Notes: generated by a model from the sequence alone, not told the origin. A stretch of DNA of 41,987 bases from a virus (IMGVR_UViG_647533160_000006:1-41987); one strand, 5' to 3'. Shown: positions 1,009-41,987, numbered from the stretch's first letter. Translations and numbers: made by a program.

Positions 1009-1083
1009 GTCCTCTTAGTTAAATGGATATAACGAGCCCCTCCTAAGGGCTAATTGCAGGTTCGATTCCTGCAGGGGACACCA
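1009..1083 (+). tRNA. argW: tRNA-Arg (anticodon CCU)
   Basis: 75-nt sequence GTCCTCTTAGTT...GCAGGTTCGATTCCTGCAGGGGACACCA; acceptor stem pairs, anticodon loop CTCCTAA, T-loop GGTTCGATTCC, encoded CCA end. Confidence 0.9.
1069..1083 (+). other. attL core (prophage left junction inside argW 3' end)
   Basis: 15-bp CTGCAGGGGACACCA at the 3' end of argW is repeated exactly at 40284-40298; integrase gene follows ~160 bp downstream. Confidence 0.6.
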
Positions 1084-1244
1084 TTTATCAGTTCGCTCCC
1101 ATCCGTACCAGTCCGCAAAATCCCCTGAATATCAAGCCTTCCGTATATTCAAAGTTCGTCATGGTTCGCGTCAGATCGTTGACAGCCGCACTCCATGACG
1201 GGTAAAAAGTGGATAAAATAATTTTACCCACCGGATTTTTACCC

Positions 1245-2402
1245 ATGCTCACCGTTAAGCAGATTGAAGCAGCAAAGCCGAAAGAAAAACCATACCGCCT
1301 TCTCGATGGTAATGGCCTGTACCTTTATGTCCCTGTATCCGGGAAAAAGGTATGGCAGCTTCGCTACAAGATTGACGGTAAGGAGAAAATCCTGACCGTA
1401 GGAAAATATCCGCTAATGACTTTGCAGGAGGCAAGGGATAAAGCATGGACTGCGAGGAAAGACATCTCGGTTGGCATCGATCCGGTAAAAGCGAAAAAGG
1501 CTTCGTCTAATAACAATTCCTTTAGCGCCATTTACAAGGAATGGTACGAGCACAAGAAGCAAGTCTGGTCAGTAGGGTATGCGACTGAACTTGCCAAAAT
1601 GTTTGATGACGACATTTTACCTATCATCGGCGGCCTTGAAATTCAGGATATTGAGCCGATGCAACTGCTGGAAGTAATCCGCAGATTTGAAGATCGCGGT
1701 GCAATGGAGCGAGCCAACAAAGCACGCAGAAGATGCGGCGAGGTTTTCCGTTACGCTATTGTCACCGGCAGGGCTAAATATAACCCGGCACCTGACCTTG
1801 CTGACGCCATGAAGGGATACCGCAAGAAGAACTTCCCGTTTCTTCCTGCAGACCAGATCCCGGCATTCAACAAAGCACTGGCAACATTTTCAGGAAGTAT
1901 CGTATCGCTCATTGCGACTAAAGTTTTGCGCTACACAGCCCTAAGAACGAAAGAGCTTCGCTCCATGCTATGGAAGAACGTTGATTTTGAAAACAGGATT
2001 ATCACCATCGACGCCAGTGTGATGAAGGGACGCAAAATTCATGTGGTCCCGATGTCAGACCAGGTGGTTGAACTTCTCACTACACTAAGCTCAATCACTA
2101 AACCAGTATCAGAGTTTGTTTTTGCCGGGCGCAACGATAAGAAAAAGCCAATCTGCGAGAACGCTGTGCTACTTGTGATCAAACAAATCGGCTATGAGGG
2201 TCTGGAAAGCGGCCACGGATTCAGGCATGAATTCAGCACGATTATGAACGAGCACGAATGGCCTGCTGACGCTATTGAAGTGCAACTGGCACATGCCAAC
2301 GGCGGATCTGTGCGCGGTATTTACAACCATGCTCAGTATTTCGATAAGCGCAGAGAAATGATGCAGTGGTGGGCGGACTGGATTGATGAAAAGGTGGAGT
2401 GA
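1245..2402 (+). CDS. intS: Tyrosine recombinase / phage integrase (IntS-like)
   Basis: ORF next to argW; translation from MLTVKQIEAAKPKEKPYRLLDGNGLYLYV gives 385 aa, the length I recall for E. coli IntS; the track ORF starts at an upstream GTG (1209) without a convincing RBS. Confidence 0.85.
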   Translation: MLTVKQIEAAKPKEKPYRLLDGNGLYLYVPVSGKKVWQLRYKIDGKEKILTVGKYPLMTLQEARDKAWTARKDISVGIDPVKAKKASSNNNSFSAIYKEWYEHKKQVWSVGYATELAKMFDDDILPIIGGLEIQDIEPMQLLEVIRRFEDRGAMERANKARRRCGEVFRYAIVTGRAKYNPAPDLADAMKGYRKKNFPFLPADQIPAFNKALATFSGSIVSLIATKVLRYTALRTKELRSMLWKNVDFENRIITIDASVMKGRKIHVVPMSDQVVELLTTLSSITKPVSEFVFAGRNDKKKPICENAVLLVIKQIGYEGLESGHGFRHEFSTIMNEHEWPADAIEVQLAHANGGSVRGIYNHAQYFDKRREMMQWWADWIDEKVE

Positions 2403-22507: not shown

Positions 22508-22980
22508 ACCTCAATCTCTCTGACCGTTCCGCCTGCTTCTTTGAATTTTGCAATCAGGTTGTCAGCCTTATGCTCGAACTGACCATAACCAGCGCCCGGC
22601 AGTGAAGCCCAGATATTGCTGCAACGGTCGATTGCCTGACGGATGTCACCGCGATCAATCATCGGTAAAGCGCCACGCTCTTTAATCTGTTGCAATGCCA
22701 CAGCATCCTGGCTTTTCGGAGAGAAGTCTTTCAGGCCAAGCTGCTTACGATAGGCATCCCACCAACGGGAAAGAAGCTGGTAGCGTCCGGCGGCTGTTGA
22801 TTTGAGTTTGGGGTTTAGCGTGACAAGTTTACGAGGGTGATCGGAGTAATCAGTGAATAGCTCACCACCTACAATGACGTCATAACCATGATTTCTGGTT
22901 TTCTGACGTCCGTTATCAGTTCCCTCTGACCACGCCAGCATATCGAGGAACGCCTTACGTTGATTATTGATTTCCACCAT
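22504..22980 (-). CDS. R: Endolysin R (lambda-type lytic transglycosylase)
   Basis: 158-aa [39 protein letters not shown]... matches recalled lambda R. Confidence 0.9.
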
Positions 22981-23287
22981 CTTCTACTCCGGCTTTTTTA
23001 GCAGCGAAGCGTTTGATAAGCGAACCAATCGAGTCAGTACCGATGTAGCCGATGAACACGCTCGTTATATAAGCGAGATTGCTACTTAGTCCGGCGAAGT
23101 CGAGAAGGTCACGAATGAACCAGGCGATAATGGCACACATCGTTGCGTCGATTACTGTTTTTGTAAACGCACCGCCATTGTATCTGCCGCGAAGGTACGC
23201 CATTGCAAACGCAAGGATTGCCCCGATGCCTTGTTCCTTTGCCGCGAGAATGGCGGCTAACAGGTCATGTTTTTCTGGCATCTTCAT
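22964..23287 (-). CDS. S: Holin S (class I, lambda S107-like)
   Basis: 107-aa [39 protein letters not shown]... with dual-start motif, matches recalled lambda S. Confidence 0.9.
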
Positions 23288-24115
23288 GTCTTACCCCCAA
23301 TAAGGGGATTTGCTCTATTTAATTAGGAATAAGGTCGATTACTGATAGAACAAATCCAGGCTACTGTGTTTAGTAATCAGATTTGTTCGTGACCGATATG
23401 CACGGGCAAAACGGCATGAGGTTGTTAGCGCAGCCTCTTGCCACCCGCTTTCACGAAGGTCATGTATAGAAGGCCGCAGCGTAACTATCACTGATGAATT
23501 CAGGATAGCCAGTGGCTACGGCTCAGTTTGGGTTGTGCTGTTGCTGGGCGGCGATGACGCCTGTACGCATTTGGTGATCCGGTTCTGCTTCCGGCATTCG
23601 CTTAATTCAGCACAACGGAAAGAGCATTTATGGCTCGCATCGCGGGAAAAAGCCCACGGTAGAGAGTCGAACTCTACAAATACTCTTACCTGTTGTGCGC
23701 TACGTTTCGTGGAGCTAACGGCGACGCTAGTACCGGTCTATGCGTCGCACCCTTGAGGGATTTACTAAGGCAACATGCCCGTTGTTACCCACTCAATTGG
23801 ACCCTCCCCGTCGCCATCTGGGTCTAGTCAGGAATCGAACCTGCCGAGGGTACATTTGAATGGGTGCCCATTATTAATCACACCGGGCCAGTGCGCCGAA
23901 TTTGGTTGCGGGGAGTCGGAAGACCCCGTGATTTTGGTTTCTTAGGCCGCCATCAACATCAAATCATCGTTTGCATTTATCTTTGTGGTCAGTTTCTAAA
24001 AACCCGCAAAGTCGCCAACTCTGACGAAAACTATCGTTGTGCTGCCACAACGATAAGAGCACTCGGTGCATTTAAGCCAAGCCCCATAAGGGAGAATGCT
24101 CTTACCTGTTGTGCA

Positions 24116-24255: not shown

Positions 24256-24879
24256 CTAACGTGTGACCGCATTCAAAATGTTGTCTGCAATTGACTCTTC
24301 CTTGTGGCATTGCACCACCAGAGCGTCATACAGCGGCTTAACAGTGCGTGACCAGGTGGGTTGAGTAAGGTTTGGGATTAGCATCGTTACAGCGCGATAT
24401 GCGGCGCTTGCTGGCATCCTTGAATAGCCGACGCCTTTACATCTTCCGCACTCTTTCTCAACAACTCTCCCCCACTGCTCTGTTTTTGCTATATCAACCG
24501 CACGACCTGTACCGTGGCAATCTCTGCATCTTGCGCCCGGCGTCGCGGCACTACGGCAATAATCCGCATAAGCGAATGTTGCGAGTACTTGCAGTACCTT
24601 TGCCTTAGTATTTCCTTCAAGCTTTGCAACGCCACGGTATTTCCCCGATACCTTGTGTGCAAATTGCATCAGATAGTTGATAGCCTTTTGTTTGTCGTTC
24701 TGGCTGAGTTCATGCTTACCGCAGAATGCAGCCATTCCGAATCCTGCTTGTGATTGCGCCATCCCCATAGCAGCCATCACATCAGTACCGGAAAGAGAGT
24801 CAGAAGCCGTAGCCCGTGGTGAGTCGCTCATCATCGGGCTTTTTGGCGAATGAAATTTAGCTACGCTTTCGAGTCTCAT
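24256..24879 (-). CDS. Q: Late antiterminator Q
   Basis: 207-aa MRLESVAKFHSPKSPMMSDSPRATASDSLSGTDVMAAMGMAQ... matches recalled lambda Q. Confidence 0.9.
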   Translation of the reverse strand: MRLESVAKFHSPKSPMMSDSPRATASDSLSGTDVMAAMGMAQSQAGFGMAAFCGKHELSQNDKQKAINYLMQFAHKVSGKYRGVAKLEGNTKAKVLQVLATFAYADYCRSAATPGARCRDCHGTGRAVDIAKTEQWGRVVEKECGRCKGVGYSRMPASAAYRAVTMLIPNLTQPTWSRTVKPLYDALVVQCHKEESIADNILNAVTR

Positions 24880-39435: not shown

Positions 39436-39712
39436 CCTGCAACTTGCCGTTAAAGGTAAATTTTTCGATGCCATGATTCGCGGAGAGAAAACGGAGGAGT
39501 ATCGCCTGTGTAATGACTACTGGAATAAGAGAATCATGTTCCGGGAATATGACCGCCTGATTATCACAAAGGGATATCCGAAGCGCGACGACTCCAGTCG
39601 CAGAATTGATGTCCCGTATGACGGATATGAAATCAAGACAATCACACATCCGCACTTCGGCGATAAACCGGTAAAGGTGTTCGCGATAAAGGTGAATATC
39701 GGCAATGAATAA
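39428..39712 (+). CDS. Hypothetical early protein (94 aa)
   Basis: GTG 7 nt after AGGAG; VANLQLAVKGKFFDAMIRGEKTEEYRL... Confidence 0.5.
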   Translation: MANLQLAVKGKFFDAMIRGEKTEEYRLCNDYWNKRIMFREYDRLIITKGYPKRDDSSRRIDVPYDGYEIKTITHPHFGDKPVKVFAIKVNIGNE

Positions 39713-39745
39713 CAATCCTCGAACTCGCGGGGATTTCTTTTATCT

Positions 39746-39770
39746 GAACTCGCTACGGCGAGTTTTGTTT
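39746..39770 (+). terminator. Intrinsic terminator
   Basis: AACTCGC-TACG-GCGAGTT followed by TTGTTTT. Confidence 0.65.
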
Positions 39771-39784
39771 TATGGAGATGATAA

Positions 39785-39952
39785 ATGCACTTCCGGGTGA
39801 CAGGTGAATGGAATGGAGAACCATTCAACAGAGTTATCGAAGCGGAGAACATCAACGACTGCTATGACCACTGGATGCTGTGGGCGCAGATAGCGCATGC
39901 AGACGTAACCAATATTCGAATTGAAGAACTGAAAGAACACCATGCCGCCTGA
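39785..39952 (+). CDS. Small hypothetical protein (55 aa)
   Basis: ATG 7 nt after GGAG; MHFRVTGEWNGEPFNRVIEAENINDCYDHWMLWAQIAHADVTNIRIEELKEHHAA; sits between two terminators. Confidence 0.45.
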   Translation: MHFRVTGEWNGEPFNRVIEAENINDCYDHWMLWAQIAHADVTNIRIEELKEHHAA

Positions 39953-39967
39953 TGGCGGTTTTTTATT
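39945..39967 (+). terminator. Intrinsic terminator ending the left early operon
   Basis: CCGCC-TGAT-GGCGG followed by TTTTTTATT. Confidence 0.75.
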
Positions 39968-40009
39968 ACCTGATTTGCAGGTTCGATTCCCTATTCGGAG
40001 ATAGTACTC

Positions 40010-40210
40010 ATGCAACACGAACTACAACCTGATTCATTGGTTGATTTGAAATTCATCATGGCTGATACTGGCTTTGGTAAAACCTTCATCTATGACCGGA
40101 TTAAGTCCGGCGACCTGCCTAAAGCCAAAGTTATCCACGGGCGAGCAAGATGGTTATATCGTGACCATTGTGAATTCAAAAATAAGCTCTTAAGCCGCGC
40201 CAATGGGTAA
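40010..40210 (+). CDS. torI: AlpA/TorI-family excisionase (recombination directionality factor)
   Basis: 66-aa MQHELQPDSLVDLKFIMADTGFGKTFIYDRIKSGDLPKAKVIHGRARWLYRDHCEF...; winged-helix excisionase pattern; matches my recollection of TorI; adjacent to attR. Confidence 0.7.
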   Translation: MQHELQPDSLVDLKFIMADTGFGKTFIYDRIKSGDLPKAKVIHGRARWLYRDHCEFKNKLLSRANG

Positions 40211-40283
40211 AATAGCGGGTAAAATATTTCTCACATATAAAAAACACCATTCCAATCAATCCCCTGCCTCGTCAAGTAGATGT

Positions 40284-40298
40284 CTGCAGGGGACACCA
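40284..40298 (+). other. attR core (displaced copy of argW 3' end)
   Basis: CTGCAGGGGACACCA identical to argW positions 1069-1083. Confidence 0.6.
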
Positions 40299-40739
40299 GA
40301 TACCCTTCAAACCAAATCTACCTTCACCCCGTAAAAGATGGGTTTGGCAGCACACTTGCCCTATATCTACTCATTTTTACTGCAACAGGTTGAAATCTCA
40401 GCACTGTCAGAAAGCGCTGATGACTAAACAGCCCTGGGCCGGGCGATGTAACCATCATACAGAATCCTGATAGCGAAATATGGCGTGACTCGATACTTCA
40501 CTCTGCAATGCATTCCTTGATGAATTCGCAGGCCCGTGATACTCGGGACAGGTCACTGAATGACGACAATGTCCTGGAAATCAGCGAACCGCGTATCCGG
40601 AGTACATTTGAGCGACTGTACCAGAACATGAATGAGGCGTTTGGATTAGGTGATTATTAGTTGGGCTAAGCATTTTTGTATTATTATTTTCCGGTTGAGG
40701 GATATGGAGATATCGACAACAACCGGAAAAAGTTTACGT

Positions 40740-41987
40740 CTATATTGCTGAAGGTACAGGCGTTTCCATAACTATTTGCTCGCGTTTTTTACTCAGGAAG
40801 AAAATGCCAAATAGCAACATCAGGCAGACAATACCCGAAATTGCGAAGAAAACTGTCTGGTAGCCTGCGTGGTCAAAGAGTATCCCAGTCGGCGTTGAAA
40901 GCAGCACAATCCCAAGCGAACTGGCAATTTGAAAACCAATCAGAAAGATCGTCGACGACAGGCGCTTATCAAAGTTTGCCACGCTGTATTTGAAGACGGA
41001 TATGACACAAAGTGGAACCTCAATGGCATGTAACAGCTTCACTAATGAAATAATCCAGGGGTTAACGAACAGCGCGCAGGAAAGGATACGCAACGCCATA
41101 ATCACAACACCGATAAGTAATGCATTTTTTGGCCCTACCCGATTCACAAAGAAAGGAATAATCGCCATGCACAGCGCTTCGAGTACCACCTGGAATGAGT
41201 TGAGATAACCATACAGGCGCGTTCCTACATCGTGTGATTCGAATAAACCTGCATAAAAGACAGGAAAGAGTTGTTGATCAAAAATGTTATAGAAAGACCA
41301 CGTCCCCACAATAAATATGACAAAAACCCAGAAGTTTCGATCCTTGAAAACTGCGATAAAATCCTCTTTTTTTACTCCTCCCGCATCCGCCGCTATGCAC
41401 TGGTGATCCTTATCTTTAAAACGCATGTTGATCATCATAAATACAGCGCCAAATAGCGAGACCAACCAGAAGTTGATATGGGGACTGATACTAAAAAATA
41501 TACCGGCAAAGAACGCGCCAATAGCATAGCCAAAAGATCCCCAAGCGCGCGCTGTTCCATATTCGAAATGAAAATTTCGCGCCATTTTTTCAGTGAAGCT
41601 GTCAAGCAAACCGCAGCCCGCCAGATAACCCAGGCCAAAAAAGAGCGCACCCAGAATTAAACCTACAGAAAAATTGCTTTGCAGTAACGGTTCATAAACG
41701 TAAATCATAAACGGTCCGGTCAAGACCAGGATGAAACTCATACACCAGATGAGCGGTTTCTTTAGACCGAGTTTATCCTGAACGATGCCGTAGAACATCA
41801 TAAATAGAATGCTGGTAAACTGGTTGACCGAATAAAGTGTACCTAATTCCGTCCCTGTCAACCCTAGATGTCCTTTCAGCCAAATAGCGTATAACGACCA
41901 CCACAGCGACCAGGAAATAAAAAAGAGAAATGAGTAACTGGATGCCAAACGATAGTACGCATTTCTGAATGGAATATTCAGTGCCAT
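40740..41987 (-). CDS. cscB: Sucrose:H+ symporter CscB (LacY-family MFS)
   Basis: 415-aa 12-TM protein, start codon at the window edge; MALNIPFRNAYYRLASSYSFLFFISWSLWWSLYAIWLKGH matches my recollection of CscB. Confidence 0.8.
   Translation of the reverse strand: MALNIPFRNAYYRLASSYSFLFFISWSLWWSLYAIWLKGHLGLTGTELGTLYSVNQFTSILFMMFYGIVQDKLGLKKPLIWCMSFILVLTGPFMIYVYEPLLQSNFSVGLILGALFFGLGYLAGCGLLDSFTEKMARNFHFEYGTARAWGSFGYAIGAFFAGIFFSISPHINFWLVSLFGAVFMMINMRFKDKDHQCIAADAGGVKKEDFIAVFKDRNFWVFVIFIVGTWSFYNIFDQQLFPVFYAGLFESHDVGTRLYGYLNSFQVVLEALCMAIIPFFVNRVGPKNALLIGVVIMALRILSCALFVNPWIISLVKLLHAIEVPLCVISVFKYSVANFDKRLSSTIFLIGFQIASSLGIVLLSTPTGILFDHAGYQTVFFAISGIVCLMLLFGIFFLSKKREQIVMETPVPSAI

Follow-up and report, generated by a model that had tools for sequence, protein, structure and literature searches.

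The stretch of 41,987 nucleotides analysed here (the window) holds a single P22-like prophage with the known KplE1/HK620/Sf6 recombination module, in the order argW-attL-intS ... torI-attR. Towards its right end two short copies of argW sequence stand on either side of torI, the excisionase gene. These are probably best explained by one integration into argW by the known module, together with a conserved T-arm-like box that would act in cis in the leader of torI. The features on which this reading depends are collected in Table 1.

Table 1. Features of the argW recombination module and related sequences in the window
Feature	Position	Strand	Basis
argW, integration target	1009..1083	+	ARAGORN; M114 empty-site homologue annotated tRNA-Arg
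Template of the 16-mer: argW variable-loop end, T-stem 5' strand, T-loop and first CC of T-stem 3' strand	1054..1069	+	
attL core, identity block CTGCAGGGGACACCA	1069..1083	+	Repeat search, four-way alignment; PMC2951348
P' arm with five putative TorI pentamers, overlapping intS promoter region	1091..1179	+	Sequence
intS, P4-type tyrosine integrase	1245..2402	+	Pfam Arm-DNA-bind_3, Phage_int_M, Phage_integrase
"Third copy" CGGCAGGTTCGATTCC, 2 mismatches, T-arm-like stretch in non-coding late leader	23831..23846	-	
Intrinsic terminator closing the early-left genes	39944..39965	+	
T-arm-like box in torI leader, conserved core CAGGTTCGATTCC at 39978-39990	39975..39990	+	
torI Shine-Dalgarno GGAG (inferred)	39997..40000	+	Sequence; kept in all lineages
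torI, recombination directionality factor (excisionase)	40010..40210	+	PDB 1z4h match; torI annotation in E. coli genomes
attR P arm, from left primer site of the published 135-bp attR (CTCTTAAGCCGCGCCAATGG) to core	40188..40298	+	PMC3509656 section 3.6; sequence
attR core, displaced 3' fragment of original argW	40284..40298	+	Repeat search, four-way alignment

ARAGORN identifies one tRNA gene in the window, tRNA-Arg(CCU), which is argW. At attL it is directly followed by intS, the product of which is 99.5% identical to the integrase of CUS-3 and 98-99% identical to those of HK633, Kapi1, HF4s and IME10. By layout and homologies the region between intS and torI has a P22-like gene arrangement (tailspike, late genes, early genes). 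The KplE1 core has been published as the 16-mer CTGCAGGGGACACCAT, and the same core is found in HK620, Sf6 and Kapi1 (PMC2951348). In the window it is duplicated at both prophage ends over 15 of the 16 bases; the 16th differs, attL having T and attR having G, because the variant of the host flank begins with G. The positions of the TorI pentamers in the P' arm were transferred from MG1655 coordinates and from the pentamers mutated in PMC2951348, giving GTTCG at 1091, GTCCG at 1111, GTTCG at 1155 and 1165, and GATCG at 1175. These five correspond to the KplE1-type TorI pentamers, in two blocks over the intS promoter, and their layout is also kept in diverged attP sites.

Exact copies of TTGCAGGTTCGATTCC occur twice, in the argW T-arm and upstream of torI, as do exact copies of CTGCAGGGGACACCA (0.04 expected), at the 3' end of argW and downstream of torI. 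Within argW the two blocks adjoin, C1069 being common to both, and the right-hand copies stand either side of the 66-codon torI ORF; the initial annotation was exact in reporting that copies of adjoining argW segments bracket this gene. When up to two mismatches are allowed TTGCAGGTTCGATTCC has three sites against 0.04 expected, a number reached in none of 100 shuffles. A chance origin of the argW-like blocks was ruled out by these shuffles.

In prophage-free strains argW is joined straight to the DNA that follows position 40298 of the window. The empty site of strain M114, the attP of HK620, and the attL and attR of the window align as B-O-B', P-O-P', B-O-P' and P-O-B', attL joining the left host flank to the P' arm of the phage, and attR its P arm to the right host flank. 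The comparison with a prophage-free argW locus (M114), which the initial annotation had proposed as a check, gives the 15-bp CTGCAGGGGACACCA as the identity block, common to attB, attP, attL and attR. The four sites are consistent with a single simple integration over this 15-bp identity block, and the copy of CTGCAGGGGACACCA downstream of torI is the ordinary attR core of that integration. Host DNA begins at 40299 with the dsdC-side flank, in the variant found in strain M114. That the junctions lie within the core is supported indirectly, by the comparison of the four sites, by published in vitro excision and by the deletion of attB for Kapi1. The Kapi1 att was mapped to the core, and precise deletion of attB lowers lysogeny (PMC8787464).

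Further observations were made on the right junction and its flank. Positions 40300-40740 match the M114 variant of the hypervariable argW-dsdC region and are unlike the K-12 flank; the M114 flank carries a DUF4942 fragment and then an oligosaccharide MFS transporter gene, equivalent to 40740-41987 of the window (minus strand). An imperfect inverted repeat surrounds the core, GATGT(A/C)TGC - AGGGGACA - CCATTTATC (reverse complement of the last element, GATAAATGG). It was read by eye at 40271-40305 and in the attP sites of loci L002, L120, L157 and L241, and would locate the IntS core-type sites, together with an overlap region of 7-8 bp, in the acceptor-stem sequence of the tRNA. The attP of phiEt88 has only TGCAGGGGACA in common with argW, a narrower possible crossover region. 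At three loci (L011, L126, L129) and at some E. coli-type loci attR keeps only TGCAGGGGACA(C), followed by unrelated flank, as in ...GGGGACATATCCC and ...GGGGACACTTTAAAG, and the CCA end of the displaced tRNA fragment is absent. These shortened junctions suggest that integration took place at secondary sites or that the right junction later suffered deletions.

The end of torI is separated from the attR core by 74 bp. Two GGGTAAAAT repeats in the P arm (40205-40213 and 40217-40225), kept as GCGGGTAAAA in all loci, are putative IntS arm-type sites. Excisive recombination in vitro has been carried out with a 135-bp attR for which the left primer was CTCTTAAGCCGCGCCAATGG (PMC3509656). This primer corresponds to 40188-40207, ca. 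200 bp downstream of the box, and since the 135-bp attR begins there the box is dispensable for excision in vitro. In KplE1, HK620, Sf6 and Kapi1 the attP lies between the RDF and int genes, which consequently come to opposite ends of the prophage (PMC2951348, PMC3509656, PMC8787464). The genomes of HK620, Sf6, Emek, phiEt88 and Midgardsormr38 have the same arrangement, and from its attL and attR we infer that the phage form of this prophage had attP between torI and int. The "unusually organised attP" that had been offered as one explanation of the repeats does exist, as this already published arrangement (PMC2951348, PMC8787464).

TorI matches PDB 1z4h over its full length (E=6.6e-43). The terminator upstream of it belongs to a mosaic module common to HK022 (tL4), Stx phages and others, with homology that stops at ~39964-39972; HK140 is among the many lambdoid phages that have the upstream module of the window up to this point only. 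In HK022 and one Stx1a phage, when read further, a ribosome-binding site comes directly after the terminator. In the window the box is found at this place, with its GTTCG beginning 29 nt ahead of the torI ATG. No sigma-70 promoter was predicted in 39700-40450, only terminators, and an Rfam search of 39850-40400 with E up to 10 gave no tRNA, only noise (STnc130, E=0.68). Menouni and co-workers reportedly found, in 2013, that the expression of torI is limited by Rho-dependent termination.

The box is not peculiar to the integrated state. HK620 and Sf6 have the terminator, TTGCAGGTTCGATTCC, hkaC/gene 18 (= torI), the attP core and int in one stretch, and box, torI, core and int are also contiguous in Salmonella phage Emek and in Erwinia phages phiEt88 and Midgardsormr38, the integrases of which are 61%, 74% and 81.5% identical, respectively, to that of the window. 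Because the box and torI are carried together in phage genomes they are phage-borne and not remnants of an older resident element, which disposes of the proposal that torI and the true attR belong to such an element. The box stands about 300 bp from the core, within the phage genomes and away from the host junction. It is neither an att half nor a displaced tRNA fragment, and it has no part in strand exchange.

To follow the box across the family, torI homologues were gathered from one-genome-per-species contigs (24 loci) and from IMG/VR. Of 80 E. coli-type IMG/VR loci, 75 carry the 16-mer without a mismatch, and there it follows at least three different upstream modules or terminators, all of them joining between ...TTTTTATTGCCTGAT and TTGCAGG. 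Clustering of the torI coding sequences at 93% identity gave 33 lineages across the Enterobacterales, 16 of which have the box (Escherichia, Enterobacter, Citrobacter-type, Serratia, some Pantoea, Edwardsiella, P. stewartii and others). Conservation in these 16 lineages is 90% or more for AGGTTCGATT and ca. 80-90% for the C, A and CC that flank it; the third codon positions of torI are 48-71% identical to those of the window, and the leader on either side of the box varies freely. GTTCG stands 28-29 nt from the ATG in 13 of these 16, and 29 nt from it in Emek and phiEt88 as well, with different intervening bases. Tandem copies of the box occur in at least three independent lineages: L131, L132, L134 and Midgardsormr38 carry CAGGTTCGATTCCCGTCAGGTTCGATTCCC, and in L153 and L010 the box repeats with a 13-nt period. 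The remaining 17 lineages lack it, including Dryocola (L014), Tatumella, several Pantoea groups and Arsenophonus. Since nearly all of the box-less lineages retain an argW-type core, TGCAGGGGAC(A/G)CCA, downstream of torI, the box is not required for targeting. Among the 80 E. coli-type copies there are 0.004 variants per site in the box versus 0.016 in the rest of the leader, a polymorphism too low for a test of selection. The comparison of the sequences supports selection on the box in about half of the lineages, and it is a conserved element rather than a decaying scar. Two metagenome-assembled genomes labelled as Actinomycetes (L011) and Parachlamydiaceae (L028) hold enterobacterial-type torI modules on short contigs, with TorI identities of 85-92%, the box and an argW-type core; these are probably binning contamination.

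A nested or sequential integration, in which the T-arm copy would be the right end of the current phage and torI with the core at 40284 the leftovers of an older one, had been put forward in the initial annotation. That the two blocks adjoin in argW speaks for it, and the GenBank record of CUS-3 (CP000711.1) is drawn in just this way, with the argW T-arm 16-mer annotated as "attL core" and "attR core" at positions 1-16 and 40192-40207. This record stops at the box, before torI and the true attR. Strain S88, a CUS-3-type lysogen, matches the final 492 bp of the CUS-3 record without a difference, and there torI and then dsdC come after the box. The boundaries of the CUS-3 record therefore appear to have been set on the wrong repeat; CUS-3 is counted among the phages with a conserved IntS/TorI module (PMC2951348). 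Nested integration is at odds with the contiguous box-torI-core-int of the virion-derived genomes named above, with the order of box, torI and dsdC in S88, with the mapping of the Kapi1 att, and with the requirement of IntS for TorI as RDF in excision (PMC2951348, PMC3509656). Given in addition that attB, attP, attL and attR fit one integration, we regard it as extremely improbable.

Because a T-arm match of 13-16 nt is held in common across genera, the box must derive from tRNA-gene DNA by descent or imitate it. One possible origin is an ancient split, in which torI and a P-arm segment were inserted into a continuous argW block of ~31 bp (T-arm to CCA) in an ancestral attP, the box being the stranded left half, later co-opted. 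Such an event would concern origin only and is compatible with our preferred explanation. The blocks abut to the base in E. coli-type modules, and the box-less L014 reads ...ATTGCCTG joined to GAGG..ATG, as though a cassette of ~25 nt were present or absent. However, in Serratia L012 and Pantoea L015 the box runs on into CCTG as GATTCCTG and overlaps the start of the core, while most attP cores have their own TTCGAT on the left (ATTCGATGTATGCAGG; GTTCGATTCCTGCAGG in argW), so that the blocks overlap. The box and the core region thus read as two overlapping tRNA-like stretches, with exact abutment specific to the E. coli-type sequence, and the suggestion that torI was inserted between two halves of one tRNA segment is not supported, in that the blocks are not complementary in other lineages. 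The inserted segment must also have brought the IntS arm sites and an IHF site, and an unsplit intermediate was not found among the loci examined. On balance a split of this kind is unlikely. A form linking the box to an ancestral tRNA-derived att segment was likewise not found.

As to function, because of the evidence for selection, the fixed spacing to the torI start and the position between terminator and ribosome-binding site, our best guess is that the box would be a cis element controlling the production of TorI; what reads it can be named with low confidence. Against such a role stand the 17 of 33 lineages that do without the box, the negligible fold of the leader, the lack of a predicted promoter and the mildness of the polymorphism contrast in the E. 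coli-type copies. One candidate reader is TorI itself, with the box (GGTTCG...) as an RDF site for autoregulation of torI. The published sites are GTTCG, GATCG and GTCCG (PMC2951348), and site I4 reads GGTTCG; a second pentamer, GTTCG, GTCCG or NATCG, stands 12-13 nt downstream in many lineages, and some have tandem arrays. Nevertheless, in ~25 P'-arm sites inspected by eye GTTCG is followed by C or T, whereas in the box it is always followed by A, and the conserved stretch is 13 nt rather than 5. Moreover phiEt88, with a divergent RDF and apparent GTNACC repeats in its P' arm, still has AGGTTCGATTCCC 29 nt before the RDF start, and a promoter that could be repressed is not evident. These points weaken the operator reading, which in our estimation is very unlikely. 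Binding by the core-binding/catalytic domains of IntS would make the box a mimic of the target site, which by bridging to the arm sites downstream of torI might, for example, silence torI in lysogens. The box does persist while the arm-type sites (GGGTAAAA, which becomes GGGCATAA in phiEt88) and the RDF sites change and the argW target stays constant, and the inverted repeat GATGTATGC / CCATTTATC around AGGGGACA, seen by eye, suggests that the T-loop GAT forms part of the left core-type site. But the box is without the TGC beside the overlap region, its best-conserved part, CAGGTTCG, falls outside a normal 9-bp core-type site, and half of the lineages lack it; binding by IntS is, in our estimation, distinctly unlikely.

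The annotations of HK620 and Sf6 offer a different reading, a pI promoter activated by cII/C1. The HK620 record has a "promoter, phage integration" and a cII site, TTGCctgatTTGC, that overlaps the start of the box, and the Sf6 record places pI at the same spot. The repeat is TTGC-N5-TTGC in HK620 as against the canonical N6, and its first half is TTAC in the window and TTCC, TTTC or TTAC in diverged lineages; no -10/-35 match was found here, and a promoter at this place would co-express the RDF with Int during lysogenisation. This role is highly improbable. An effect at the level of RNA, either as a T-arm mimic or through a hairpin that sequesters the Shine-Dalgarno sequence, would suit the fixed spacing to that sequence and to the ATG. 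Pairing of AUU(U)CC with GGAG(A)U is possible and is frequently drawn in single-sequence folds, while L012 and L018 could form full T-arm-like hairpins. These folds differ between lineages, however, the 3' strand of the stem is not conserved and only 2-3 base pairs can form in E. coli-type copies; the RNAalifold consensus is -1.89 kcal/mol with an unfavourable covariation term of +0.41, and we hold an RNA structure to be decidedly improbable. A parallel was sought in CP4-57, which has a P4-type int, an AlpA-type RDF and ssrA as its target: no mimic of the ssrA T-arm was found upstream of alpA, the search yielding only the T-arm of ssrA itself and a site with 3 mismatches inside intA. Nor was any related module found that targets a different tRNA: all the Int homologues for which the att region was read (61-99% identity) have an argW-type core and the next homologues are at most 38% identical.

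Under the explanation we prefer, one integration with the box as a leader element, the order on the phage circle would be terminator, T-arm-like box, torI, P arm, core of 15-16 bp, P' arm with the intS promoter, and intS. Crossover by IntS within the core would bring intS beside a regenerated argW (attL), the 3' end of the gene there being phage DNA, and torI beside the displaced 3' fragment of argW (attR). The box would be a phage-internal cis element of the torI leader, with CAGGTTCGATTCC 28-29 nt ahead of the start in most lineages. It may have descended from tRNA-derived DNA, the argW T-arm, of an ancestral attachment region, and would have been retained by selection as an aid to the control of TorI production. 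Such control might act on a read-through transcript or on the DNA between the terminator and the ribosome-binding site.

The third T-arm copy described in the late region is indeed present, on the minus strand with 2 mismatches; a link to argW or to the att system is not evident. Sites like CGGCAGGTTCGATTCC are expected by chance at ~0.02-0.04 and the match is not strong alone; it is not conserved in homologues of the surrounding tRNA/tmRNA-like element, and GGTTCGATTCC is a generic T-arm motif. Kapi1 has two tRNA genes at the equivalent position in its late leader (PMC8787464). The element itself is non-coding, ~360 nt long (23677-24035, minus strand), and lies between a Q-like gene (24256-24879) and the holin gene (22964-23287). 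Stretches with 75-91% similarity to it, unannotated or labelled "hypothetical", occur in many unrelated phages, among them Salmonella Skatevirus, Cronobacter CS01/ESP2949-1, Klebsiella MK54, Sashavirus and the tRNA region of P1/RCS47. The element in the window carries a frame for a tmRNA-like tag, GCA AAC GAT GAT TTG ATG TTG ATG GCG GCC TAA (ANDDLMLMAA*), which varies conservatively to ANDDVVLMAA* in Skatevirus, and a hairpin shows two compensatory pairs (CGGGG/CCCCG versus CAAGG/CCTTG). The Rfam tmRNA matches are below gathering (alpha_tmRNA, E=6e-4; tmRNA_permuted, E=0.02), and a permuted tmRNA bearing this tag is called by ARAGORN only when the threshold is set to 70%, which yields many false calls. 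The element may be a phage-borne permuted tmRNA-like gene.

Much of what is described here belongs to a module that is well characterized. KplE1 (CPS-53), HK620, Sf6, CUS-3 and Kapi1 have the same target at the 3' end of argW and the same core, CTGCAGGGGACACCA(T), with integrases 98-99.5% identical and TorI essentially identical to those of the window; they also agree in the placing of attP between the RDF gene and int, in the five TorI pentamers that overlie the intS promoter, and in the box upstream of torI. The prophage of the window differs from KplE1 of K-12 in being a full-length P22-like prophage of ~39 kb as opposed to a 10-kb remnant, and its identity block is 15 bp as against the published 16 bp. 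The attR core and the position of attP between int and xis are already known, and the copy downstream of torI is exactly the displaced 3' tRNA fragment familiar from att duplications in tRNA genes. The copy upstream of torI differs from such duplications, since it lies some 300 bp within the phage and occurs in phage genomes that are not integrated. It resembles the "boundary sequences" of lambdoid mosaics (bsq2 in the Sf6 record), in that it lies at the left edge of the int-xis module, the place at which several unrelated early-left modules adjoin. Boundary sequences are defined by position only, whereas the box has a 13-nt tRNA-like core and a fixed spacing to the start codon across genera. 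The control of int and xis in lambda (pI, sib retroregulation) is an analogy only, that of a cis element near att which tunes the balance of Int and RDF; unlike in lambda, a cII site, a promoter or an RNase III-type hairpin is not demonstrable at the box.

As far as we know, the T-arm-like box has not been described before; it is a minor conserved element within a module that is itself known. Its E. coli form is the 16-mer, while the tRNA-like box of 13 nt is common to many Enterobacterales phages and placed at a fixed distance from the excisionase start. The argW-like 16-mer upstream of torI resembles an att half, and the error apparent in the CUS-3 record is open to any delimiting of argW prophages by direct repeats. 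Excision in this phage group is held to be switched by expression of the RDF (PMC2951348), and a conserved element in the leader of torI is therefore a testable candidate for part of excision control. The box might go further and be a mimic of the target T-arm, kept so that the core-binding domains of the integrase or some other reader gate TorI production and hence excision. We consider this unlikely; if true, it would add to this well-studied recombination module a level of control that has not been described before.
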